A stretch of 36,589 nucleotides of DNA from a virus (lineage: Duplodnaviria; Caudoviricetes), in IMG/VR virus record IMGVR_UViG_3300016662_000124, positions 1 through 36,589 of that record; one strand, given 5' to 3'. Numbering within the stretch: position 1 is the first letter of the stretch; each line of letters begins with the position of its first letter. Positions 1 through 35,910 of this stretch are shown here, piece by piece. Both the position numbers and the translations under genes were made by a program. The notes beneath the pieces are model-generated. The model was given only the letters and a program-made list of their open reading frames with translations, was not told the DNA's origin and ran no database searches.

Positions 1-2523
1 ATGGCTCCATCGTGGACCGACTTTTTCAAATTGTTCAGCTATGCGTCTGAGCCAGACCCTCTTTCTCGTCGCAATGACCCAAGGCAGTTTACCTCTGCTG
101 GTGTAAGCCAACCAGAGGCACTCGGGGCTGATATCAATAGCGCACAAGTCAGCGGCGGCATGTCTAGCTATCGTCAGACCAATGACATGATTGACACAAC
201 TACGCTGTCAAATCGTGCCATGCGTTATAAAGAGTACGAACGACTTCGTAATGTGCCAGAAATTGAAATGGCCATGACGGTTTTTTCCGATGAAGCCTGC
301 GTTGCCGGTAATACCAAAATAGCAACTCCATTCGGTTTTGTAACAATAAAAGAACTAGCAGACAAAAGAGCCGATGAAAGATTTCTCGTTTATTGCTATG
401 ATTTTGAAAAAAATGACTACACCATCGGCTGGGGATTTGCACCTCGTTTAGTCAAAAAAGCCCGAACAGTAAGAATTGTACTCGATAATGGCAGCACCAT
501 CACAGCAACGCCTGATCATAAAGTCCTAAAACGAGACGGAACTTGGGTCGAAGCTGGCGAAATACAATTCGGCGACGAACTCATGCCATTCTATCGAATC
601 CCGGCAAATCAACGATTAACCAAAATGAAAGTCAATCAATTCCCAAGAATTATGACCTTCAATAAAGGCTGGATTCACGAAAAACAATTCATAGATGACT
701 GGCGCACCGGCAAAACAAATCCGTTTTATGAAAAAGTAAATCTTGCTTGCAGATTACTTGGCAGCGGATTGTCCACAAGAAAAACCATGCAGCAAATGGG
801 TCACGATTGGCACTCCATCGAAGATTGGATTCATAAAGAAGGATTTTCCTACCGTGAAATAAAAAGACTTCATTGGAAATATGAAGACCGAAGAAGAGTC
901 GTTGATGTTTCAAAAGGACCGGAAATGGATGTTTATGACATTTCCGTCGAAAAACATAAATGCTTTGCTACAGACTCCGTAATTCTTCACAACTGCCAAA
1001 GAGACGAAAACGGCAACATATTTAAAATTACCACGGAAAACCAAGATGTAAAAGAAGAAATTGAATGGCTTTTCCTCAATAGAAAAATGCTCAATTTCAA
1101 TCGGCATGGCTGGGCATGGTTCAAAAACTTATGCATATTTGGCGACTTATTTGTTGAAATCGTAATCAATCCTGACAACCCCAAGGAAGGCATCTATCGT
1201 TGTGTTCATCTTCCAGCCGAAACAATGTACCGCATCGAAACAGTCAAAAATCGTCTCATTGAATTCCAACAAAGCAAGGAAGGTCCAGACTATCAAGCAA
1301 TTGTCCGTGGCTCTGTCACAGATATGACCGATTCAGAAATAGCTCAAAGCACAGCAATTAGATTTGCACCAAGCCAGATAGTCCATTTCAGAATAGGTGA
1401 CGATAGAAAGACATTCTATCCATATGGTCAAAGCCTTATCGAACCCGCCCGTGCTCCAGCCCACAGTCTTCGACTTATGGAAGATGCAATGGTCGTTTAT
1501 CGACTAGTTCGAGCGCCTGAACGCAGAGTTTTTTATATTGATGTGGGTCAACTTCCACCATTCAAGGCTGAAGCATTTATTGATCGATTAAAAGATCAAT
1601 TCCGCAAAAGAAAAATTACAAGTAACAGCGGCAGTCCCGGCGCAAACCAAGTAGAAGAACGCTGGATGCCACCCGCTCAAGATGAAGACTACTGGTTACC
1701 TATTCGACCAAATAGCAACACCAGAATCGATACTTTGCCGGGAGCCGAAAATCTCGGCGAAATCGATGATGCAGTATATTTCCGAAATAAACTTCTTACT
1801 GCACTTAACTTCCCCAAGAATTATTTCAATAACGAAGACCCCGGTGTAACAAGAATCAGCTTGTCTGCCCAAGATGTTAAATTTGCCAGAATGATCGAAA
1901 GACTTCAAAGTCATTTTGAAGATGGATTATTAGAAATCGCAGAGAGACATTTGGCTCTCAGGGGTTTCCCTGAAGAATCCTATCGTGATCTTAGAGTCAA
2001 AATGACACCACCTAGCGATTGGCGTGAACTTTCCCGTGCTGAAGTTGTAAACACCCGTTATGGCAACGCTGGTACTCTCAAAAGCAGTCAGTTAATGTCG
2101 GATTTTGACATTATGACTAAAATATTGAAATATAACGAGGACGAAACCGAAGAAATCCTCGCCCGACTCAAAATACAAAAACTTGAAGACTTAAAATTGC
2201 AAGTTATTTCGCAAAACCCACAACTTCTCGGTGTCGGCATCCCCGGTCAACCAGAAGAAGCAGGAAAAGAACTCGGCGCAGAAGCTGGTGGACCCTCAGC
2301 AATGCCCGAACCCGGTATGGGAGAACCACCACCACCAGCAGGCGAAGCAGGCAGCGAATTGCCGGAACCAACTGAAGTTCCAGCAGAAAAGACTACCGCA
2401 GCAGAGCCATCAGAAATGGAAGAACCAAACGAAAAAGATATTAAAAAATATGATCTTGAAATCCAAAATTATGACTTGGAATCAGATGCAGAAAACATCG
2501 ACTTTAGCGTGGGTGACGAATGA
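1..2523 (+). CDS. T4-like portal vertex protein (gp20), interrupted by an intein
   Basis: gp20 hallmarks LRLMEDAMVVYRLVRAPERRVFYIDVG, EDYWLPIR, IDTLPGAENLGEIDDAVYF, DVKFARMIERLQ; first gene of the portal-protease-scaffold-capsid block; acidic Pro-rich C-tail. Confidence 0.95.
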   Translation: MAPSWTDFFKLFSYASEPDPLSRRNDPRQFTSAGVSQPEALGADINSAQVSGGMSSYRQTNDMIDTTTLSNRAMRYKEYERLRNVPEIEMAMTVFSDEACVAGNTKIATPFGFVTIKELADKRADERFLVYCYDFEKNDYTIGWGFAPRLVKKARTVRIVLDNGSTITATPDHKVLKRDGTWVEAGEIQFGDELMPFYRIPANQRLTKMKVNQFPRIMTFNKGWIHEKQFIDDWRTGKTNPFYEKVNLACRLLGSGLSTRKTMQQMGHDWHSIEDWIHKEGFSYREIKRLHWKYEDRRRVVDVSKGPEMDVYDISVEKHKCFATDSVILHNCQRDENGNIFKITTENQDVKEEIEWLFLNRKMLNFNRHGWAWFKNLCIFGDLFVEIVINPDNPKEGIYRCVHLPAETMYRIETVKNRLIEFQQSKEGPDYQAIVRGSVTDMTDSEIAQSTAIRFAPSQIVHFRIGDDRKTFYPYGQSLIEPARAPAHSLRLMEDAMVVYRLVRAPERRVFYIDVGQLPPFKAEAFIDRLKDQFRKRKITSNSGSPGANQVEERWMPPAQDEDYWLPIRPNSNTRIDTLPGAENLGEIDDAVYFRNKLLTALNFPKNYFNNEDPGVTRISLSAQDVKFARMIERLQSHFEDGLLEIAERHLALRGFPEESYRDLRVKMTPPSDWRELSRAEVVNTRYGNAGTLKSSQLMSDFDIMTKILKYNEDETEEILARLKIQKLEDLKLQVISQNPQLLGVGIPGQPEEAGKELGAEAGGPSAMPEPGMGEPPPPAGEAGSELPEPTEVPAEKTTAAEPSEMEEPNEKDIKKYDLEIQNYDLESDAENIDFSVGDE
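298..993 (+). mobile_element. Intein (232 aa) in the portal gene, no recognisable LAGLIDADG domain
   Basis: Block A CVAGNTKIATP, block B TATPDHKV, block F VYDISVEKHKCF, block G ILHN followed by +1 Cys; removal restores FSDEA-CQRDENG. Confidence 0.93.
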
Positions 2524-2771
2524 TAAATTTGGCTCAATTGCCTAATCTATTTTTCAAAAACCGCAAATTTTTGGACAGTTCCACAATTGCAGGTTGTGTC
2601 AAATGCTGCTTGACCATTCAATCAAAAGAAATAATATCATTTACAGACAAGGAACAAACCTGCATATGCCCCAAATGTGGCCATGATACTATCATTTTTG
2701 ACAATATGGAATTTGCAATCAATGAAAATTCTCTAAAAAAAGCAAATAATTATTTATTTAAGAAAAATTAA
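2520..2771 (+). CDS. Small Cys-rich zinc-ribbon protein
   Basis: CVKC and CPKC pairs; ATGA overlap with the portal stop. Confidence 0.7.
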   Translation: MINLAQLPNLFFKNRKFLDSSTIAGCVKCCLTIQSKEIISFTDKEQTCICPKCGHDTIIFDNMEFAINENSLKKANNYLFKKN

Positions 2772-3115
2772 CCCAGATTAAAACCATCAGCAGCAGGCGG
2801 TCTGATCTGTTCACCCTCTTCTTTACCTGATCGATCACCCAAACCCTTGTCGGTAAATCCACCATTCATTTTCTTCTTGATGTCAAGGAAGGCATCAAGG
2901 TTGTGTTTATTCAATATTTCTCGGATATCTGGGTCCATTCTTTGTTGATTTAGAAAAGCAACAATCATTTCCGGCTTGGTTTTTAACAAATGTTTCAAAG
3001 CCATGACCGCAATCGCTGTATTGTCGGCATCTTGATGTTTTTGATCCGGCTTTTTCTCTGCAATGTATGAGGGAGCATCCTCGTTTAAAGCAAGATATTC
3101 CATAAATGTTTTCAT
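2768..3115 (-). CDS. Hypothetical protein with capsid-targeting-like N-terminus
   Basis: MKTFMEYLALNE start; GAGGA SD upstream; TATATA box at 3149-3154. Confidence 0.8.
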   Translation of the reverse strand: MKTFMEYLALNEDAPSYIAEKKPDQKHQDADNTAIAVMALKHLLKTKPEMIVAFLNQQRMDPDIREILNKHNLDAFLDIKKKMNGGFTDKGLGDRSGKEEGEQIRPPAADGFNLG

Positions 3116-3279
3116 TTATTTCCTCAAATTCTCGTTCTATTGCATACTTATATACTAGGCAGGTGTGAATTTAAACATACGGCTGCAAAAATGGAGCATG
3201 AAGTATACATACTCTCATTAGCAAGCACCGTCAAGAATGTATGATTTGTAATTTAACCAGATCAGGGAGTTAATAGATT

Positions 3280-5112
3280 ATGAAGAGAAAACTAATTAGC
3301 TTCGATGCTTTTAGAAAAATCGAAGAATCATCATTTACAAACGCAGAAAACGAATTGATCCAAGCAGAGGAAGTGCTTGCAAAAACTCTGGGTGTTGAAC
3401 AACTAAATCTACACTCTTTCGGTGAATCAGATGTCACCTATCAAACCAACGATGGCAACTTCGTCCATGCAGTCTACACCATCGACAAAGACAAAGTCAT
3501 CCTCGAAAATATCCAAATGCTTGTTATTGATGAGCAAACAGAAAAGAAAGCAGCAAGGAAAGTGATCAGCGACATGCTTGATTCAATCCTTGAAAACAAG
3601 GACAAAAAAGCCAATGAACTTTTTGAGTCATACATGAATATGCCCTCAATCAAGCGTGAAATAAACGAAGCAGTCAGCATCGGTGGCTTCAAGCTCACAG
3701 TCAGCAAGCCCAAAGGACTTCGCAAGCCTTCCAAGCTCAAGGGAAGACACCAAAATCCCGCAGATGTCAAGAGGCGCATTGAATCCCGCATGAAAACCCT
3801 TCGTGGTCTCTCTACAGCAAAGAAGCAAACTGTCCGTGAAAAGGCTCGTAAAATTGCTGGTGCAGGACAAAAGAGAGTCTATGCACGCAAGATTAAGCCA
3901 AGTGCCATGAAAGAATGGCTCAATATGTGCGAAAATGTCATCGGATACCTTGATTTCAAGGCGACAGGATCACTCCTTCGTGAATCCACCATGAAAACCG
4001 ATAGCCAAGGCAATGTTGTCGCAGTCGCAATCCCAACCATTCAAAAGCGTAACGAAGGCAAAGTCCTTGACATGGGTCTTCAGACCATCGACAGCACAAG
4101 CAAAGTTCTTCGTGGCAAAATGAAGAAGATTCACGAAGACCAAAACTTCGTCAAGGCTATGGCTGACCTCAAGCGTTATAACAATATTAGCGATAGCTCC
4201 GCTCTTGAGGAAACCCTTGAAGCCATCATCAGCCGCTGGCCAGATGTTCTCTATGTCACCGAAAGCGAACTTGCCGAACAAATCGCAGTCGCTCTTGAAA
4301 CAGCAGGCGTTAAAAATTATGACGATGCAACCTGTGCATTCATGGCAGAAGCAATTCTTCGCTCCGCTCACAACGCCTACACCGAACGAGTCCGCAAGAT
4401 CGCAACCCTTGCTGGCGCAAAAAACGATGTGACATCCGAGTGCGAATCATGCTCAGATGCCTACAAGGATTTCGCCGAAGTCGCAGACCTAGCATTTGCA
4501 CAAATTGACGAAAGCACCGAAAACGAATTCAGAATTTTCTCTGATCTTTATAACGCTCTGCTTGAAGTTCATCGTGTCGCTGCTGAAATTGGCGACGAAG
4601 CAACTAGAATCGACGCTGCCGACTTCATGCAGGAATGTAGCGCAATTCTCAACAACAGGGCGGATGTTGATCTCAGTCTCGCAGAAGCAATTGCTGATTA
4701 CCTCGCTGATCTTCTTGAAGCAGCAGGCGAAGGCGATGCCGGAATCGATGCAAAACCTGAAATTAGCGTCGGCGGCGACCACAGCATGACCAAATACAAC
4801 GCAAAACAAGCAGCAGTATCCAGCAACAATACCGGTAGCTGGAAGGACGCTGCTCCTGTTAGCGATGGCAAAGATTACGACAAGGGTCTTGCAGACGAAA
4901 TGGGAAATGACGGTTTCAGCAACATCGCTTCAGGCGACACTTGGCCAGACATGAAGAACCCTTATGTCCCCAAGTCCATGATGTACAAGATGAAAGAAAA
5001 GTCAGTTTTTGACGATTCAGAAGACCTTGGAACCATGTCTTCCGGCGACACTTGGCCAAATCTCAAGAATCCTATGGCTCCCAAGCCTGTTATGCCAAAA
5101 CCAGTTGTCTAA
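3280..5112 (+). CDS. Putative prohead core / internal head protein (610 aa)
   Basis: Sits between portal and protease (position of T4 gp67/gp68); C-ending codon bias like gp22/gp23; K/R-rich segment; duplicated C-terminal SGDTWPxxKNP motif. Function inferred from position only. Confidence 0.65.
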   Translation: MKRKLISFDAFRKIEESSFTNAENELIQAEEVLAKTLGVEQLNLHSFGESDVTYQTNDGNFVHAVYTIDKDKVILENIQMLVIDEQTEKKAARKVISDMLDSILENKDKKANELFESYMNMPSIKREINEAVSIGGFKLTVSKPKGLRKPSKLKGRHQNPADVKRRIESRMKTLRGLSTAKKQTVREKARKIAGAGQKRVYARKIKPSAMKEWLNMCENVIGYLDFKATGSLLRESTMKTDSQGNVVAVAIPTIQKRNEGKVLDMGLQTIDSTSKVLRGKMKKIHEDQNFVKAMADLKRYNNISDSSALEETLEAIISRWPDVLYVTESELAEQIAVALETAGVKNYDDATCAFMAEAILRSAHNAYTERVRKIATLAGAKNDVTSECESCSDAYKDFAEVADLAFAQIDESTENEFRIFSDLYNALLEVHRVAAEIGDEATRIDAADFMQECSAILNNRADVDLSLAEAIADYLADLLEAAGEGDAGIDAKPEISVGGDHSMTKYNAKQAAVSSNNTGSWKDAAPVSDGKDYDKGLADEMGNDGFSNIASGDTWPDMKNPYVPKSMMYKMKEKSVFDDSEDLGTMSSGDTWPNLKNPMAPKPVMPKPVV

Positions 5113-5125
5113 GTAAAGGAGTTCA

Positions 5126-5809
5126 ATGGAAAACCAATTTCTGCTGGTTGATTGCTGCAACAACGGCGGATTTACCATGAATATGAACGAGTCAGTCTCC
5201 GATAGGGGACTGACTAAATTCCGAGGTAAATTCCAAGAAGCTGAAGCCGTCAACAAAAATAAAAGAATCTATCCTTATGCTGTTCTTGACGAAAATGTCA
5301 AAAAGCTTATGCCAATTATCCAAAATCGTGGTCTTATCGGCGAATTAGACCATCCAACAGACTCTATAATTCATTTTGAGAAATGCTCTCACATCGTTAC
5401 TAAACTATGGTGGGAGGGTAATAACCTGATGGGAGAAGGAGAAATCCTTAATACCCCTCATGGAAAAATTCTCAAAGCACTACTGAATGACGGCGTTCGT
5501 GTCGGCATCTCTAGCCGAGGCGTTGGAAATGGAAGAAGCGACGAGAATGGAATTTTAGTGATTGGTGAAAGCTACAAACTCATCACCTTTGATGCCGTAG
5601 CAGACCCAAGCACTCATTCGGCATTTCAGGAGAAATTGTCGAGTGGCAAGAAAGAAAATTATTCACCTCATCCTGCCCAAGAATTTCCGAAAAATTCGGT
5701 AAAAAACGAAAGCAGCAGCATACATAAGGTTAACAAAGAAGCCTTATTGGCATGTTTAGGTGGAATAATCGAACAACAAACAAGAAAAATCACAGCGAGG
5801 TTAGGCTAA
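5126..5809 (+). CDS. Prohead core protease (T4 gp21-like)
   Basis: NKNKRIYP, GELDHP, SH, ILNTPHG, GISSRGVG, FDAVADPS motifs; AAGGAG SD. Confidence 0.95.
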   Translation: MENQFLLVDCCNNGGFTMNMNESVSDRGLTKFRGKFQEAEAVNKNKRIYPYAVLDENVKKLMPIIQNRGLIGELDHPTDSIIHFEKCSHIVTKLWWEGNNLMGEGEILNTPHGKILKALLNDGVRVGISSRGVGNGRSDENGILVIGESYKLITFDAVADPSTHSAFQEKLSSGKKENYSPHPAQEFPKNSVKNESSSIHKVNKEALLACLGGIIEQQTRKITARLG

Positions 5810-6705
5810 TGGATAAGATCGTAGATGCACTTAAGAAACTATTGCCCCAAAGCGAAGTCAATGAGGTTGCGGAAGCCGTCAGCGAACTGCTTGAACAAGC
5901 CAAGGCGAACCTTGAGTCTGAATACAACCAGAAGCTTGAGGAAGCTTATGCCGAACTCACCAGCGAACTTTCCGAAGCAGAGAAAGTTGCAGAGCAGGGC
6001 TACGAGGAAGCATACTCAATCATCGGCGATCTTCGCAGCCGTCTTGAACTCCAAGGCGAAGAATACAAATCTGCCCTCAACGATGGCTACGAAGAAGCTT
6101 ATCAAATGTTGAAGGCAGAGCGTGAAAAGAACCAAAATCTTGAAGTTGAAATGTACGAGGAATACGACTCCAAACTCGTAGCCATGAAAGAATACATGGT
6201 TGACAAGATTAGCGACTTCCTCTCAATCAAAGGTCAAGAAATTTACGAACAAGCTCGTCGTGATGTTCTTAACGATCCCCGTCTTGCCGAACACAAGGTC
6301 GCACTCGACAAGATCGTTAACATTGCTTCGAACTATCTTTCCGACGACACCCTCGCATCAGCAAACACCGAAAAGCTACAGGAAACTTCCAAGCAGCTTG
6401 ACGAGGTTAAAGCTCAATTGCGTATTCTTGAAGCCCGTAACATCCGTCTCAGCACCGAAAACACCAAGCTGAACGAGAGCGTTCGCCAAGCCCAAGAACT
6501 CATCAGCGAAAGCCGCAAGTTTGTCACAAAGGAAAAGAAATACGCTGTCATCAGCGAACAGAAAGAAAGAGTTGAGAAAGCAAAGAATGTAACGGGGAGA
6601 GGCAATACATCCAGCGACAATGTTGTGATCTCTGAATACAACGCTTCCGCTGGTTCTGACATGGATCAACTGTTGGTCTTGTCGGGTCTGAAACAAACCA
6701 AGTAA
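5809..6705 (+). CDS. Prohead scaffolding/core protein (T4 gp22-like)
   Basis: Glu-rich coiled coil between protease and capsid; start placed at ATG 5809 (TAATG overlap, GAGG SD) rather than 5752. Confidence 0.85.
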   Translation: MDKIVDALKKLLPQSEVNEVAEAVSELLEQAKANLESEYNQKLEEAYAELTSELSEAEKVAEQGYEEAYSIIGDLRSRLELQGEEYKSALNDGYEEAYQMLKAEREKNQNLEVEMYEEYDSKLVAMKEYMVDKISDFLSIKGQEIYEQARRDVLNDPRLAEHKVALDKIVNIASNYLSDDTLASANTEKLQETSKQLDEVKAQLRILEARNIRLSTENTKLNESVRQAQELISESRKFVTKEKKYAVISEQKERVEKAKNVTGRGNTSSDNVVISEYNASAGSDMDQLLVLSGLKQTK

Positions 6706-23103: not shown

Positions 23104-23901
23104 CTATTGTGGAATAGCAAATTTATATCCTTGCAATTTAAGTTTTAAAAATGGCAGGACAGGCATTTTTTCTTTATGATTATATATTGGCAGCAAAGCA
23201 TTATCTAATGAGTCATTCCAAGATTTGATGACTTTTATATCGGTAAAATAAGATTGATGTGTCAATAATTGTTTATCCAAGTTTCTGACCGCTCTGCAAA
23301 CACCTATTACTTTATGGCTATTTTCAAAAAACAGAGGACCACCGCTGTCGCCAACTATGGTATAAGCATTAGTCCTAATTGCTCCACGAAATGATTCTGG
23401 TCGGAAGGTAAGAGGTTGAGTGACTTCGCCACGATCAATTCTTGCGTCATCCATCATGCCGAATCCGACATGAAAAATTTTGCTGCCCATATAAATCTTG
23501 TGGTCGAAATCCATTTCTGCCACAGGCATTTGTTCATCGCTTTCAAAAACGCATACGGCTAAATCGTCTTTTGGATTCATGGCGTAAACAAAAACCGAGT
23601 AATCTTTTTCTGCATATGGTTCAGAGAGGTTTTTATATTTAACATGTTTCACAAAGAATGGGCCATCGCTTTCGATGGCATGGTAAGCAGTTATGATAAA
23701 ATTCTTGTATTTATCTCCGTCTTTGGTTGAACGAACAACAAATGCGCTTCCACCCGTTTTGGCTTCTGGGTCATAAATTACGACTGTTGGATACAAACAT
23801 TTTTCATAAATTGTTGTATTTTCTGATAAAGTTGATGATGAAGAGGTTGAAATTAACAAAGAGAATAAAAACAGCAAAGACAAGCAAGTTAAAGTTCGCA
23901 T
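23104..23901 (-). CDS. Secreted trypsin-like (S1) serine protease
   Basis: Signal peptide; TAYH, DDLA, GDSGGPL catalytic-triad motifs. Confidence 0.9.
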   Translation of the reverse strand: MRTLTCLSLLFLFSLLISTSSSSTLSENTTIYEKCLYPTVVIYDPEAKTGGSAFVVRSTKDGDKYKNFIITAYHAIESDGPFFVKHVKYKNLSEPYAEKDYSVFVYAMNPKDDLAVCVFESDEQMPVAEMDFDHKIYMGSKIFHVGFGMMDDARIDRGEVTQPLTFRPESFRGAIRTNAYTIVGDSGGPLFFENSHKVIGVCRAVRNLDKQLLTHQSYFTDIKVIKSWNDSLDNALLPIYNHKEKMPVLPFLKLKLQGYKFAIPQ

Positions 23902-23933
23902 ATTTGCCCCCTGTCTATTTAAAGGTGGCCAAT

Positions 23934-23981
23934 AAAAAAACTTCAAGCCAGCCCTTGTTTTTGGAAAGGGCCAGCTTGAAG
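23934..23981 (-). terminator. Intrinsic terminator for the 77-aa gene
   Basis: 16-bp stem fully paired on the minus-strand RNA using G-U pairs, followed by a U-tract. Confidence 0.8.
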
Positions 23982-28130: not shown

Positions 28131-28553
28131 ATGCAAAGAAATCTGACAACAGATCAAATACAAGAAGTATTGAAAAAAGTTTCTTCTTATTTAGAAGATG
28201 CCAAGTTACAATGGGATAATCAAAACCCAGACAAAAAAGGCTGGTTTTCCTTGAATAAAGGTAACATCATCAAGGCCACAATATTTTTACTTGGCGTGAC
28301 TGACGATTTCATTCAATTCGTTGAAACCTTCATACCTGATGGTGCGGACAAGAAAGCTGCTGTGTTGTTAGTGACAGCCAAACTTTTCGATTATATTGCC
28401 ACGAAGTCATTTCCGGCTTTTATTTCACCGTTTGTTCCAATGATTAAAGAAATCGTAATTTCAATCGTAATAAGTAATTTGATTGAGTTTATAGTTGGAA
28501 AATACAAAGCGGAATATTGGAAAATGGAGCCGACCAATGTCAACAATTCTTAA
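28131..28553 (+). CDS. Hypothetical, possibly membrane-associated (holin-like) protein
   Basis: GADKKAAVL motif and amphipathic/hydrophobic C-terminal helices; AAGGAGG SD. Confidence 0.55.
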   Translation: MQRNLTTDQIQEVLKKVSSYLEDAKLQWDNQNPDKKGWFSLNKGNIIKATIFLLGVTDDFIQFVETFIPDGADKKAAVLLVTAKLFDYIATKSFPAFISPFVPMIKEIVISIVISNLIEFIVGKYKAEYWKMEPTNVNNS

Positions 28554-29484
28554 CAAAATAAATTTGCTTCCTTTCCTGAGAGAATCCGTTGCAACCATAC
28601 AAGATGTTCAACAGAAGTCGGGATGGGAAATAACAGCGTTTAATTTGCCTCAATCATGGCAATTAAGTCAAGGAGAAGGAGTTAAGATTGCGGTTCTTGA
28701 CACAGGATGTGATCTTGATCATCCAGATTTGCAAGAAAACCTTTTAGAGGGACGCAATTTTGTCAACGAAAAAATGGAACCAGATGATGACAATGGTCAT
28801 GGTTCACATGTTACTGGTTCAATTTGCGCTTTGAACAATGACATTGGTATCGTAGGTGTTGCGCCGCAGTCAAAAGTTTTGCCTGTAAAAGTATTAGATG
28901 AAAATGGTTCTGGCGATCTTGATGTCGTTGCGAAAGGAATTCGTTGGGCAGCAGATCAAGGAGTTGATTTTATCACTATGTCTCTAGGATCGCCGACCGA
29001 AACTCCTCAAATTCATGATGCAATAAATTATGCGGAAAGAAAAGGTTGCGTGACATTTTGTGCTGCTGGAAATGCAGGACAAACAAGACAAATCTTTTAT
29101 CCTGCTGCCTATCCAAATGTTATTGGAATCGGCGCTGTTGATTCAAATTTCAACAGGGCAAATTTTAGTTGCACGGGTCCAGATTTAGACTTTCTTGCGC
29201 CCGGTGTGAAGATACTAAGCACCGTTCCTGATAATTGGTACGCAATTCTTTCTGGAACCAGTATGAGCAATCCATTTGCTGTTGGAATAGCAGCATTACT
29301 TTTGTCGTTTACAAGAATACATGGAGTAGATTTTGGTTTGAAATCTGCCGAAGATTATATTCGCATTTTTAGACAATGCACCATACCAACATCCAATCCC
29401 AAATTTGCTAACAAACACTTTTTCGAGGGCTTTGGAATTATTGATCCAAGAAAGATGAATGAATGGATCAGTTCGCATCACTAG
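28537..29484 (+). CDS. Subtilisin-like S8 serine protease
   Basis: VLDTG, HGSHV, AAGN, SGTSMSNP; GGAG SD before ATG 28537. Confidence 0.93.
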   Translation: MSTILNKINLLPFLRESVATIQDVQQKSGWEITAFNLPQSWQLSQGEGVKIAVLDTGCDLDHPDLQENLLEGRNFVNEKMEPDDDNGHGSHVTGSICALNNDIGIVGVAPQSKVLPVKVLDENGSGDLDVVAKGIRWAADQGVDFITMSLGSPTETPQIHDAINYAERKGCVTFCAAGNAGQTRQIFYPAAYPNVIGIGAVDSNFNRANFSCTGPDLDFLAPGVKILSTVPDNWYAILSGTSMSNPFAVGIAALLLSFTRIHGVDFGLKSAEDYIRIFRQCTIPTSNPKFANKHFFEGFGIIDPRKMNEWISSHH

Positions 29485-30136
29485 GATTGGTGATTTTTTC
29501 CGGCAACTTAGGCGCAGGCAATTCATAAAACATAAAATCTTGTTGTTGGCTCAGGCTTCCACCTGAGCCTTGTTTTCCCCCTTCTTTACCGCCTGCGCCA
29601 CCTTTTCCTTGTTTGCCTTTGCCTTCTTTTCCATTTCCTTGGCCTTCCTCATCTGTTGTCAAACCATTTCCATTCCTTTTCCCTATAACTGTCTTCCCTC
29701 TTGCAACCATGGTTTGTAATTTAGCCAATTTCTCATGTAAATCATGTGAATAAGGAACACGATATGATCTTGGTTCGGCTGCATTTTTTCTTGGCGTAAA
29801 TGGATAAAGAATTGGATTAACAGGTTGATTGGTCATTTGGTAATTGTCATCAACTTCTGTGGCCCAAATGAAGATTGCGCCTTGATCATGAGAATCTTTT
29901 TTAGATGGTTCTTTGATGATAGACCAATGTAAAATAAATGTATTTGGCATATCATTAGGCGATGCCCATCCTGATATCTGGCTTAAAGAAAACCAAATAA
30001 TGAGACTGAAATAAAGAACCACGGGCACGATTGCGGCTTTGAGCCACCATTTTCCTTTTCCGAGAATAATGAACCACAATACAACTGCAAACAGCACAAG
30101 AAATGTAAGTGGTATGCCTATAATTTGTGTTTCCAT
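29468..30136 (-). CDS. Two-TM membrane protein, third gene of the MotA/ExbB-like module
   Basis: Two N-terminal hydrophobic helices, EPRSYRVPY motif, Gly/Lys-rich tail. Confidence 0.8.
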   Translation of the reverse strand: METQIIGIPLTFLVLFAVVLWFIILGKGKWWLKAAIVPVVLYFSLIIWFSLSQISGWASPNDMPNTFILHWSIIKEPSKKDSHDQGAIFIWATEVDDNYQMTNQPVNPILYPFTPRKNAAEPRSYRVPYSHDLHEKLAKLQTMVARGKTVIGKRNGNGLTTDEEGQGNGKEGKGKQGKGGAGGKEGGKQGSGGSLSQQQDFMFYELPAPKLPEKITNPSDAN

Positions 30137-30137
30137 A

Positions 30138-30761
30138 TTACTGTCCAGATAAACGAGTTGCTTCTTTAATCAAACTACGATCCAAGGTGTTGGATGATAA
30201 TAATTCACCAGATGAATCAAGCCTGAAACGCATGATTGTTTTTTCTTCTCCATTTTCCGTCAAAGTTACAGAATTAACAAGAATTGTTTTTACATTTGGA
30301 TTCAGTTTGTCTATTTGTACGGTAACTGGGCACGGTCTTGGATCATTTTTCTTGAAAGCATGAGCATTGACACAATATTCGCCGCTGATGAAACCACGCA
30401 GAGTCACAATTTCACGATTGTAAGGATATTTTGTTCTGCCACTTGGAGTTTCAACAAAATCATTTTTAAAACCTAAATCATCCCGATCCAAATGCATCAA
30501 TCCTTCTTCTCTCCTGCGAAAGAAGCATAAGTTGCCTATTGGGTCTTCAACATAAAGGTCAATGTCGTTGTCCATATCTTCTGGCCAACTCATCGTTATG
30601 ATGTATTCAGCCTTTACTTCAACGCTGGATTTGCTTTTATCCTTATTTTCGTTCACCATTGCAAATGATAGAACAAAGAGGGCTGTAAAAGCCAACAACA
30701 TATTGAACAACAAATCGAGGAAGGATGTGTTGCAACTATAAAGTCTTTTTGTTCTCATCAC
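30138..30761 (-). CDS. MotB/ExbD-like single-TM protein with a YfaP/DUF2135-like outer domain
   Basis: TM helix with Asp (FLDLLFNMLLAF); W...DIDLYVEDP...LDRDD...E...GEY motif. Confidence 0.75.
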   Translation of the reverse strand: MMRTKRLYSCNTSFLDLLFNMLLAFTALFVLSFAMVNENKDKSKSSVEVKAEYIITMSWPEDMDNDIDLYVEDPIGNLCFFRRREEGLMHLDRDDLGFKNDFVETPSGRTKYPYNREIVTLRGFISGEYCVNAHAFKKNDPRPCPVTVQIDKLNPNVKTILVNSVTLTENGEEKTIMRFRLDSSGELLSSNTLDRSLIKEATRLSGQ

Positions 30762-31251
30762 ACTCCAGCCTATTGATGTGCAAACTCAAAATAAAAGTTT
30801 GTAGTTTTAGCAATTGTCCGCAGATTAGACCAACCAATGTTGTGTAAAGTGCTGTTGCCATACTTTTACCTAATTCTGACAGTAAACCTTGAATGCTTTT
30901 TTGGTTTGATATTTCCAATCCTTCAAAACCAGACAACATCATGACGAAACCGACAATTGTTCCTAACATCCCCAAGTTCAAACAGAGTTCGCTTACGAAC
31001 CATCCTATTTCTTCTTTTCGTGAAAAACTTTCCAGTTCTTCCTTGGATGGTTTGTCTTTTTTACAAATAAGAAATATATTATTGCCTATAAAAACAGAAA
31101 CGATTGCAAAGATGATTATGGTTGCAATGCTAAGATAACTCGCATCTTTTTCATAAATGTTCTTAATCACGCCCATATAAGCACAAAAAACAAAACCAAT
31201 AACAATTAAAGTGAATGTAAGCCACCACTTTAAAAAAGATTCATATTTCAT
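30736..31251 (-). CDS. MotA/TolQ/ExbB proton-channel family protein
   Basis: LGMLGTIVGF and MATALYTTLVGL signature helices; four TM segments. Confidence 0.88.
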   Translation of the reverse strand: MKYESFLKWWLTFTLIVIGFVFCAYMGVIKNIYEKDASYLSIATIIIFAIVSVFIGNNIFLICKKDKPSKEELESFSRKEEIGWFVSELCLNLGMLGTIVGFVMMLSGFEGLEISNQKSIQGLLSELGKSMATALYTTLVGLICGQLLKLQTFILSLHINRLECDENKKTL

Positions 31252-31748
31252 GGTTTATCCTTTGCAGCTTCTATTTCCTTGATCTTATTTTGAATTGCAG
31301 CAGCTTCCTCGTATTTCTCTTGAAAAACAGCATTCCGCATTTCCTCTTTCAATAAAGCTATTTGTATTGATGCGTTTTGTTTCAAAAATTCTTTTTCCCA
31401 AGTTGATGGTATTTTGCCTATATGTTTATTTTCGAATTGACATTTTTTGAAGATGATTATTGATTGCTCTCTGAATATTTTATAGCAATTATCGCATCCA
31501 AACCTTTGGGATTTGATTATTTCTTCAAATTTAATCCCGCAATTTGAGCATTTTTTGTTTTTGTTTTCATATACATTTTCAATCAAATCAAGAAGTTTTG
31601 TGAGTTTTGGAGGTATCAATGTGTGGTCTTTTTGTATCATGCACAATTGACAAATATTTAAATTTTCTACTTCTCCATTGACTAATTGAGAAAAATTGAT
31701 ATTTTTTGCGTGCGGACAGGGTTTATTACTGATTGGGCAATAATCCAC
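31248..31748 (-). CDS. mcsA: McsA-like protein (activator of protein-arginine kinase McsB; UvrB/UvrC motif)
   Basis: Cys pairs, QLVNGEVENLNICQLC, CSNCG..F......RFGCDNCYKIF, HIGKIP, AVFQEKYEEAAAIQNKI. Confidence 0.88.
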   Translation of the reverse strand: MDYCPISNKPCPHAKNINFSQLVNGEVENLNICQLCMIQKDHTLIPPKLTKLLDLIENVYENKNKKCSNCGIKFEEIIKSQRFGCDNCYKIFREQSIIIFKKCQFENKHIGKIPSTWEKEFLKQNASIQIALLKEEMRNAVFQEKYEEAAAIQNKIKEIEAAKDKP

Positions 31749-33500: not shown

Positions 33501-34313
33501 ATGACAGAAATGCTTAACACAAATCCTGAAAGGTCGTTGCCTAAAATTTATGGCAAGTCAATTTTATGGCATCCTGCAAGTTCAATAAAGATTTTGCAAG
33601 TCTACAACAAAGGTTTGGAATTCGCATTAGTTTCTGACAAATTTGAACAATGCCACCCATTTGTTTGGTGCAAAGATTTTTTGCACGATGTGATTTTTTC
33701 AACGATTCATCAACAAAAATTTGATATTTATCGTTTTTTTTATAACCCAGAAAATAACCCTAATGCTTGTCTTAAAGAAATCAGACTTCTTGTTACGAAC
33801 TCAAAAGACTCAAAATTACCAAAGAAGATCGATGCTTGCATAGAATTTATGAACCAGATAGAAGAAAGCCTTGGAATGCCTAAAACCAAGGTTAGAAAAT
33901 GCCTCAATGCTCCGCAAGAATACAAATATGGTGTGTATTTATTTCAAGGAAATAAAAGATGGCTAAATGCTCCACCAATGATTTCCCTGTACAGCTTCTT
34001 GATAAGGATTGGTCTGTGCCATCAAATTGGAACAAATTACAACACAACAATAAATTTAATTAAGAATGGTTTTTTGAAACCATATCAACCAAAAGATTCA
34101 AAATGGCTTTGCGATATTGAACCTTCAATTTATAAAATCATAAGATATAGTGATAAAAAAATATTTTATCGTGATATTAAAAAAAATTATCCTAAACATT
34201 TGTTGATTGATAGGATTCACAACAACCTTGGAATCATGTCTTTCTCGACTGATATGCGTCTGAAAGCCGCAGGACAACCGGTGTCATTCCCTTATTGGCA
34301 TCGTTTCAGGTGA
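33501..34313 (+). CDS. Hypothetical protein upstream of the amidoligase
   Basis: 270-aa ORF with WCKDFLHD motif, co-oriented with the ligase. Confidence 0.7.
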   Translation: MTEMLNTNPERSLPKIYGKSILWHPASSIKILQVYNKGLEFALVSDKFEQCHPFVWCKDFLHDVIFSTIHQQKFDIYRFFYNPENNPNACLKEIRLLVTNSKDSKLPKKIDACIEFMNQIEESLGMPKTKVRKCLNAPQEYKYGVYLFQGNKRWLNAPPMISLYSFLIRIGLCHQIGTNYNTTINLIKNGFLKPYQPKDSKWLCDIEPSIYKIIRYSDKKIFYRDIKKNYPKHLLIDRIHNNLGIMSFSTDMRLKAAGQPVSFPYWHRFR

Positions 34314-34330
34314 TTTCAAGGAGTAATTTT

Positions 34331-35248
34331 ATGCGCTTCACATTTGGAACCGATCCTGAATTTATGATTTCACGCTGGGATGATTTGGTTTCAGCGATAT
34401 CTTTGTTGCCGAACAAAGAATCAGCGATTGCCAGAAACGGAAGCCAATTTTATTACGATAATGTCCTTGCAGAAATCGCTGTCAAGCCTGCCAAGAACAA
34501 AGAAGAAGCTCTTTTGAATATTGGATCGGCTTTGCAAAATCTTGCAAAATTAGTAAAGCCTTCACGATTTGTTATTCGAGCAAGTGCAAAATATGATAAT
34601 CAACAATTAAAAGATAAGGAAGCAAGAATAGCAGGCTGCAATCCAGAATGGAATGCATACACATTACGATGCATTTTGCCGCCTGAAGAAGTGATTGCTA
34701 AAACTAATTTTCGTACTGGTGGTGGTCATATTCATATCGGCGGTGAAGGTCTTGAGAATCCAATCAATGCGTTCAATGTAATTAAAATGTTGGATTTGTT
34801 TCTTGCTGTACCAGCAATTTTTCTCGACACAGATGAGACAAGTGTCGAACGCCGTAAAATTTATGGTCATGCAGGAAGTCATCGTGCAACAGATTATGGT
34901 TTTGAATACCGTCCTCTTGGTAATTTCTGGTTTGCAAGTCCAGAATTAGTTGAACTTGTTTACGATATCGTGAGTTTTTGCTTGGAATGTGTTGAGAATA
35001 AATTGCATGAAAAATTTTGGTCTGTAAATGAAAAGTTGTTACAAAGCGATGACCCAAGTAAGGCATACACATGCACAGGATATGATGTAAAATTGCTGTG
35101 CAAGGCAATCAATTCTTGTGACAAAAAGCAAGCCGACAAATTTATGATGTTTATTTCCAATTATATGCCATCACAATTATTCTTGCGTATTGAAGAAATG
35201 TCAAAGAAACAACTTCCTGATCCATATGAATCATGGAGGCTGTCATGA
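34331..35248 (+). CDS. phiEco32-like COOH-NH2 ligase type 2 (glutamine-synthetase-fold amidoligase)
   Basis: GTDPEF, DNVLAEI, GCNPE, RTGGGHIHIG, RRKIYGHAG, YGFEYRPL. Confidence 0.88.
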   Translation: MRFTFGTDPEFMISRWDDLVSAISLLPNKESAIARNGSQFYYDNVLAEIAVKPAKNKEEALLNIGSALQNLAKLVKPSRFVIRASAKYDNQQLKDKEARIAGCNPEWNAYTLRCILPPEEVIAKTNFRTGGGHIHIGGEGLENPINAFNVIKMLDLFLAVPAIFLDTDETSVERRKIYGHAGSHRATDYGFEYRPLGNFWFASPELVELVYDIVSFCLECVENKLHEKFWSVNEKLLQSDDPSKAYTCTGYDVKLLCKAINSCDKKQADKFMMFISNYMPSQLFLRIEEMSKKQLPDPYESWRLS

Positions 35249-35910
35249 ATTTTAAAACTGTAGTTCATGAGCCAGAATTTCCAATAAAAGGCAATGCTAT
35301 TTTATTCACGGGACGAGGTGGTAGTGCAGAATCATTCATAGAGAAATATGAATATTATCTAAAAGAAACGAGGTTGATAGCGATTCAACCCATTTCACAA
35401 TGGTATCCGATGCCAAATGGTATGGATGATCAAGAAGATGCCATTAAAGGCTTAAATAAAAATATTGGTGAAATAAAAAATCATGTAGATGAAATAATCA
35501 AGGAATTTGATATAAGTCTCAATGAATTAGTTTTTATCGGTTATTCTGCTGGAAGTGTTGTGGCGTTACAGCTAATTACAAATTATGACATGAATATTGC
35601 TTTTGCCTTTTTGCACAGCGGAGCACTATTTGAACCAGAATCTTTGAAAGAGTGTTCAGTTAAAACACCTTTCATGCTTATTCACTCAAGTGATGATAAT
35701 TGCTTTTCATGGGAAGAAAGATATTTGCCCATGAAAAATGCGATGATCGCAAAAAATTATAATCTTTTCTTTCTTGAGAAAAAAGAAGACGGACATGCAA
35801 TAACAGACAATGATTTATATTTTGTATCGTCATACATTTCAAATTTGTTTAAATATAGTGATTCTATTCCTTATAAATTTGTTGATCTTGTCGATTCATC
35901 TGTTTCCTGA
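35245..35910 (+). CDS. Alpha/beta hydrolase (phospholipase/carboxylesterase-like)
   Basis: GYSAG nucleophile elbow, HSSDD acid, GHAI His; GGAGG SD; ATGA-coupled. Confidence 0.85.
   Translation: MNFKTVVHEPEFPIKGNAILFTGRGGSAESFIEKYEYYLKETRLIAIQPISQWYPMPNGMDDQEDAIKGLNKNIGEIKNHVDEIIKEFDISLNELVFIGYSAGSVVALQLITNYDMNIAFAFLHSGALFEPESLKECSVKTPFMLIHSSDDNCFSWEERYLPMKNAMIAKNYNLFFLEKKEDGHAITDNDLYFVSSYISNLFKYSDSIPYKFVDLVDSSVS

Follow-up and report, generated by a model that had tools for sequence, protein, structure and literature searches.

A widespread three-gene membrane module resembling the 5:2 ion motors, with a sodium-type ion signature and a predicted TerD-like head, in a T4-like phage and in proteobacteria

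The stretch of DNA considered here (the window, 36,589 nucleotides of the IMG/VR virus record IMGVR_UViG_3300016662_000124) is a fragment of a T4-like phage, as judged from matches to the portal protein, the prohead protease and gp23. Its sequence is present in freshwater metagenome runs, four of the five best of which may be its source, and there was no RNA run among the listed runs that contain it. On the minus strand it carries three consecutive genes, here named A, B and C, for which an initial annotation made from the letters alone had proposed a tightly coupled, ion-driven membrane machine. The coupling is evident, since A and B overlap by 26 nucleotides and a single nucleotide separates B from C. 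The features of the trio are the following.

30736-31251, minus strand: gene A (171 amino acids), candidate minimal four-helix ring subunit of the MotA/PomA type
30958-30960, minus strand: Thr98 of A, corresponding to PomA Thr158 (Na+ site) in an alignment to 8bri
30838-30843, minus strand: Thr137-Thr138 of A, corresponding to PomA Thr185-Thr186 (Na+ site) in the same alignment
30138-30761, minus strand: gene B (207 amino acids), single membrane helix and TerD-like outer head; an alternative start at the ATG at 30758 is possible
30714-30716, minus strand: Asp16 of B, at the position of the ion-binding Asp of MotB, PomB and ExbD, assigned by conservation
30159-30614, minus strand: residues 50-201 of B, beta-sandwich of TerD fold with a predicted Ca2+ site, from the structural model and fold searches
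29468-30136, minus strand: gene C (222 amino acids), helical hairpin, likely OB-fold outer domain, Gly/Lys-rich loop and Pro-rich tail

These genes belong to a widespread three-gene module under selection which resembles the MotAB and ExbBD motors and which falls outside Mot, Ton, Tol and Zorya. Relatives of B numbered 2,914 among 3,007 candidates scored and formed 2,301 clusters at 50% identity. The survey of gene neighbourhoods in phages and bacteria that had been proposed as a check found B at 425 loci, of which 387 leave at least 700 bases on both sides, and A, B and C are present together in 380 of these 387, with a single departure from the order A-B-C. Carriers comprise IMG/VR contigs, metagenome contigs, bacterial genomes and cultured phages, and 261 trios under 90% identity served as the non-redundant set. 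Among 50,697 phage records there were 29 matches, all in cultured Rhizobium or Sinorhizobium phages of several unrelated types, temperate and lytic, and the full trio was confirmed in four of the 29. In phage 16-3 the genes are p038, p040 and p042; a link to the immX locus of this phage was considered and ruled out, the two being about 4 kb apart. Cultured bacterial carriers include Azospirillum brasilense, of clade 2, and Sphaerotilus mobilis, which like Ideonella livida is of clade 1. Of the genomes sampled, 29 of 201 from alphaproteobacteria and 36 of 300 from gamma- and betaproteobacteria (12-14%) contain B, each set including its seed genome and one genome having no B score. The module is accordingly phage-encoded in the window, as annotated, but not specific to phages. 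A tandem pair of C copies occurs in one genome and the order A-C-B in another (loci L197/L450 and L201), and the Azospirillum replicons give two B matches each (plasmid hits H30-H36). Searches of the open-access literature gave no description of the trio, in agreement with the initial view of an uncharacterised module.

The bacterial homologues are common, and A resembles the helices of ZorA and TolQ, which would suit either recent capture of host cargo or a decoy poisoning the Ton, Tol, Mot or Zorya complexes of the host. In a FastTree phylogeny of 116 B proteins (midpoint root, no clade test, loci picked by likeness to the window) the B of the window groups exclusively with phage sequences, and the majority of clade-1 B sequences from proteobacteria form one nested group with support of 0.998. 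The closest bacterial trio is 43% identical to that of the window, a level exceeded by 56 of 203 phage trios, and the GC content at third codon positions (0.31-0.35) is like that of the neighbouring genes. Median ratios of nonsynonymous to synonymous substitution (dN/dS) between phage pairs are 0.10 for A, 0.10 for B and 0.11 for C, with 18, 19 and 19 of 21 pairs usable, respectively. The phage-only clade and the dN/dS near 0.1 among phages argue that the trio is not a recent host capture, a condition under which the initial interpretation would have fallen. Poisoning of host complexes, one of the roles first suggested, is likewise unlikely given purifying selection on all three genes and on the ion site, and for a decoy a single subunit would suffice. 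Cargo or decoy is thus the least credible of the explanations discussed here.

Flagella, transport across the outer membrane, gliding and Zorya defence are all powered by known 5:2 motors, and the kinship of the trio to these is seen in A and B. A matches PF01618 above cut-off (2.1e-7), and its profile, built from 92 homologues, finds the solved chains of MotA, TolQ, PomA and ExbB. The assignment of A as ExbB/TolQ-type therefore holds at the level of the family, but hydropathy gives four hydrophobic segments, whereas ExbB has three membrane segments. Only about 25 residues lie between A helices 2 and 3, and the phage forms of A have a short cytoplasmic loop. The inner helix pair of PF01618 with its polar ring in A, and the adjacent single-helix partner with its Asp, are two of the traits expected of a member of the 5:2 superfamily (MotAB, ExbBD, TolQR, ZorAB). 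Given these features, we regard a motor-type complex of A and B as highly probable.

The ion site of A can be read by comparison with PomA, whose residues G154, M155, T158, A182, T185 and T186 are all matched, M95 falling on M155. According to passages of PMC10374538, T158, T185 and T186 bind Na+ and are conserved in all Na+-driven stators, H+ stators have Ala in place of T158 and T185, and M155 is the bulky residue that sets the direction of rotation; passages of PMC11946911 and PMC11890865 apply the same threonine rule to ZorAB. Among the 261 trios the triad reads T-T-T in 213, K-T-T in 16, T-S-T in 11, N-S/T/N-T in 11 and otherwise in 10. The ion signature is thus of the Na+ type and not of the proton type, and the proton channel of the initial annotation is not upheld, although Na+ is only slightly favoured over H+ as the actual driving ion. 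All 16 K-T-T forms are bacterial (L037, L060 and 14 other loci) and have lost the acid at position 88, where Gly or Ala stands instead; Lys is further found at A position 134 in four and at position 137 in two of the 261 trios. One may speculate that Lys here stands in for a cation normally bound at the threonine site, since entry of Lys into this site is expected if a cation normally occupies it.

The Asp at the MotB/ExbD position of B, on which the initial interpretation depended, is conserved. It is kept in 259 of the 261 trios, part of that set having been found with Asp-containing patterns, and in 112 of 112 ungapped rows among 120 listed phmmer hits, which were found without motif patterns. 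Outside the membrane, the model of B (predicted local distance difference test score 91) shows a beta-sandwich following the single helix, which hydropathy gives as well. TerD is the best Foldseek match of this head (1e-4), and in the VIA fold search two TerD chains score Z 8.9 and 8.8, the next row other than TerD reaching 5.6; the best of these matches has a root-mean-square deviation of 3.8 over 129 aligned residues, on a predicted model. The Ca1 ligands of TerD are given as residues 40-42, 78, 79 and 89, and the Ca2 ligands as residues 29, 82, 84 and 88, in passages of PMC8779313 that cite the nuclear magnetic resonance paper on TerD. In the TerD sequence used for comparison the Ca1 positions read D-L-D, D-N and E and the Ca2 positions W, G, G and D. 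Residues that match these ligands by motif are seen in B: all 261 trios have W59, D66, D68, D94 and E117, and 258 have D95, in the same order as in TerD. In a forced profile alignment of B and TerD the W, D-x-D and H/D parts are collinear and the Glu is matched only by eye. We therefore describe the outer domain of B as a predicted TerD-like calcium-binding head, and metal binding by B is likely.

This head differs from TerD in being membrane-anchored and periplasmic with an inserted hairpin; the PF02342 (TerD) sequence profile does not include B, there is no ter operon near the trio, and TerD genes were found in none of five carrier genomes. The YfaP/DUF2135-like domain first proposed finds weak matches in 16 of 92 B homologues (best E 0.0018; atlas score for DUF2135 0.83), but none in the B of the window itself, for which the fold search gives TerD. 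The accompanying claim that B has no OmpA-like peptidoglycan-binding domain was correct, no wall-binding Pfam of that kind being found in the 92 homologues. The periplasmic domain of ExbD/TolR was not recognised on B, a search of its sequence against the PDB gave nothing credible, and neither B nor C matched a Pfam, PHROGs or NCBIfam family.

For C, hydropathy and the structural model agree on two membrane helices. The model continues from this hairpin into three strands, a helix, two further strands and a disordered Gly/Lys loop. Residues 61-207 align, weakly (Z 4-5.4), mostly with OB-fold proteins. The topology fits a five-strand barrel with the helix between strands 3 and 4, and the outer domain is likely an OB fold. 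A search of the C sequence against the PDB gave nothing credible, the wide VIA search gave helix-pair matches only, and Foldseek against the PDB gave nothing under 0.001; a viral structure library returned three close rows, one of them annotated as a protein of a Rhizobium phage. Lys33, in the hairpin, is conserved, with Lys or Arg at this position in 226 of 261 trios.

In 14 IMG/VR loci (seven non-redundant, one marine phage clade) C is fused in frame to a phage lysozyme, whose PF00959 match is 3e-42 to 6e-50 in seven of seven fusions tested and whose catalytic spacing is intact; the same architecture is seen in an atlas cluster of 86 members. The fusion implies that the end of C lies in the periplasm, and together with the distribution of charges it suggests that the B and C domains are outside the inner membrane. 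In the fusion of L156 an internal ribosome site and an ATG precede the lysozyme, and free lysozyme may also be made from this gene. No C forms of 397-2000 residues were found, the lysozyme fusions of 300 residues lying below that range.

Covariation was run on 402 and on 261 trios against within-clade shuffles and recovered strand pairs within chains. Between A and B, nine of the top 20 pairs join A helices 3-4 to the B helix, where the interface is expected, in order of depth (L127-A24, L106-L22 and M95-L15), a signal that is suggestive only, as one of 35 shuffles also reached nine and the shuffle mean is about 6. The membership of C in the module follows from gene linkage, and that C is both a subunit and the transducer is favoured, with less assurance than the pairing of A with B.

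Compared with PomAB and MotAB, the trio shares the four-helix A with its matched ion-site residues and an Asp in the partner helix close to its cytoplasmic end; of the traits of a Na+ stator it has the threonine triad, and it lacks the OmpA-like anchor, the large rotor-contact domain, the inner-helix prolines and the flagellar context, and has a third gene. With ExbB-ExbD-TonB and TolQ-TolR-TolA it shares PF01618, a self-contained operon and the order of ring subunit, Asp partner and third membrane protein, but its B head is a TerD-like beta-sandwich and not the ExbD/TolR domain, and A lacks the Glu and the prolines of TolQ and has Thr-Thr where TolQ has Ala-Thr. The placing of C in the TonB/TolA slot is right in that an obligatory two-helix third gene is there, but in fold C is not TonB/TolA-like: it has two helices and an OB-like domain, with no TonB C-terminal domain (TonB_C) in 92 homologues and no long linker before the outer domain, and so differs from a single-helix, long-linker transducer. 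As to Zorya, PADLOC gives weak ZorA helix matches of A and no match for B, C or the neighbours; the trio lacks the ZorA tail (A has 171 residues), the wall-binding domain of ZorB, and ZorC, ZorD and ZorE, and it is carried by phages. Type I Shewanella ZorAB also binds Na+ according to a passage of PMC11890865, and E. coli ZorA binds Ca2+ according to one of PMC11946911, whereas the Ca2+ site predicted in the trio is on B, outside the membrane.

The bacterial carriers offer a possible client. A gene of the pyrroloquinoline quinone (PQQ) system lies in 41 of 80 bacterial loci (29 of the 48 longer than 10 kb), as scored with profiles built from the same loci. PQQ alcohol dehydrogenase is present in 13 of 13 alphaproteobacterial genomes with clade-1 B against 48 of 201 overall (24%), and in 23 of 33 gamma- and betaproteobacterial clade-1 genomes against 50 of 301 overall (17%), the unpublished genome G044 being one background positive. 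Fisher tests give p of 9e-9 and 1e-12, respectively, with seeds removed and genomes that are not independent of each other. In 11 of those 23 genomes the dehydrogenase is within 30 kb of the trio. PQQ alcohol dehydrogenases need Ca2+ or lanthanides, and the neighbouring enzymes carry motifs of both kinds, which we take to mark lanthanide-type and calcium-type enzymes. A DUF3108-like lipoprotein, a possible fourth partner, directly follows C at many betaproteobacterial and some alphaproteobacterial loci (L036-L086).

The link to PQQ also bears on a Ton-type explanation, in which the trio would be a specialised energiser for the import of PQQ or lanthanides across the outer membrane and phages would have borrowed it to nourish the cells they infect. 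The gene order exbB-exbD-tonB is the same as A-B-C, and TonB-dependent receptors occur in four of the 80 bacterial loci. Freshwater viruses with methanol dehydrogenase and PqqA are reported in a passage of 10.1101/2020.04.02.019802. The want of a TonB C-terminal domain and of a long linker in C speaks against such an energiser, as does the ordinary TonB already kept in five of five streamlined carriers, and it appears quite improbable.

Taken together, these data lead us to propose, tentatively, a conserved inner-membrane 5:2 ion motor that probably runs on Na+, bears a predicted Ca2+-binding head on B and has C as a likely transducer acting on a periplasmic client. By homology, five A and two B would assemble as the ring, Na+ would flow through Thr98, Thr137, Thr138 and Asp16, and the A ring would rotate around the B pair. 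C could dock on the outside of the ring, so that rotation moves its OB domain against the B head, where the metal may gate the motor or be handed on, and the motor would load, open or release a periplasmic client with no need of ATP. For bacteria of clade 1 this client would likely be the PQQ alcohol dehydrogenase system. In phages, one lineage of which ties lysozyme to the module, the motor might be the virus's own handle on the host periplasm during infection, a role that we consider doubtful.

Several observations weigh against the motor or parts of it. A has almost no cytoplasmic domain, and where TolQ has its inner-helix prolines Pro is nearby in only four and one of 261 trios; B is without a peptidoglycan anchor, so that there is no evident holder for either part. 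Covariation of A with C and of B with C was no higher than in within-clade shuffles. The freshwater origin of the window weakens the case for Na+, and so does the finding of NqrA in none of the five carrier genomes tested. The TerD ligands were mapped by motif and not by residue-level superposition, and the sequence-profile match of B to TerD is not significant (E 0.096). Finally, clade 2 has no link to PQQ, with the dehydrogenase in four of 15 genomes and no neighbour gene in common among 13 loci, and a PQQ enzyme was found in none of ten large carrier phage contigs.

The small cytoplasmic part, the absent prolines and the absent anchor would be accommodated by a gated ion leak without mechanical output, in which Ca2+ on the B head gates a Na+ or H+ channel, C is a regulator, and the phage sets the membrane potential for superinfection exclusion or lysis timing. 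Carriage by unrelated rhizobial phages, temperate and lytic, agrees with this, and so does L127 (5203-11206), where the trio is inserted between rIIB and a gene with an ATPase domain that is probably rIIA. The presence of the trio in 12-14% of the proteobacteria sampled, as an operon that stands alone or is linked to PQQ, is, however, a better fit to a housekeeping machine; the position equivalent to M155, the rotation-direction residue of PomA, has Met or Leu in 88 of 92 A homologues, and PADLOC finds the weak ZorA helix matches only. We consider the leak unlikely, if less so than the other alternatives.

Lysis has modest support as a role, and a device dedicated to it, in which the motor would respond to a change in the ion gradient by holding, positioning or releasing endolysin, can be weighed from the phage neighbourhoods. 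The fusion of C to a lysozyme with its catalytic spacing intact favours it, as do L349, where the trio comes directly after two spanins, L414, where an endolysin starts 48 nucleotides after C, and L404, where the trio follows a lysis cassette and a protease. An endolysin is within about 2 kb of the trio in nine of 71 lineage representatives, two of these being the fusion, but in 62 of 71 none is among the proteins scanned, a survey that covered 300 of 423 neighbour clusters, with 46 short minus-strand clusters dropped. The chance rate of such adjacency was estimated and not measured, the probability of at least eight of 71 being 0.007 at a rate of 4% and 0.21 at 8%. Most phage neighbours are DNA-metabolism and host-derived genes, the fusion is confined to one clade and keeps its internal start, no lysis gene was found next to the trio of the window, and the bacterial copies would be left unexplained, which together make the device improbable. 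At L349 the genes at 1666-6356 form one run of an endolysin, an acyl-carrier-like gene, the two spanins, the trio and small membrane genes, the probable endolysin and the acyl-carrier-like gene being named by eye. An actin homologue of the volactin family lies near the trio in 12 phage and four bacterial loci (L090-L097, L102-L104, L116, L155; L027-L034).

The preferred motor can be carried further, to a separate branch of 5:2 motors that would be driven by Na+, be gated or loaded by Ca2+ or lanthanides via the TerD head and, working through an OB-fold arm, mature or release periplasmic proteins without ATP. In bacteria it would serve PQQ dehydrogenases; phages, long carrying and diversifying it and maybe its main reservoir, would have coupled it to lysis enzymes. 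This extended version is speculative and on balance unlikely.

Upstream of A and overlapping it by four nucleotides is one further gene.

31248-31748, minus strand: McsA-like gene (NF053706, 1.8e-21, under cut-off), with Cys motifs and a UVR domain

It was considered as a fourth subunit and rejected, since it adjoins the trio in only five of 166 loci, the window included, and such a neighbour was seen only in the nearest phage clade. A promoter scan gave 12 sites against 16 expected. Elsewhere in the window an intein interrupts the T4-like portal gene (1-2523), a trypsin-like protease is encoded at 23104-23946, a subtilase gene converges on gene C (28495-29484), and a COOH-NH2 ligase gene is flanked by an unknown gene and an esterase (33501-35910) in a block that recurs in related phages. 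Proteases (ClpP, trypsin) are also frequent neighbours of the trio in other phages.

The trio would be a widespread, hitherto unnamed member of the 5:2 type, encoded by phages, in which the head and the third subunit are new and the ion signature is that of Na+. With about 600 residues of unique sequence it may offer a minimal model for the coupling of ions to work, and its natural Thr-to-Lys variants a handle on ion selectivity. The link to PQQ points to an unrecognised energy-dependent step in periplasmic alcohol oxidation. If the separate branch outlined above were true, the module would be a virus-encoded rotary membrane motor.

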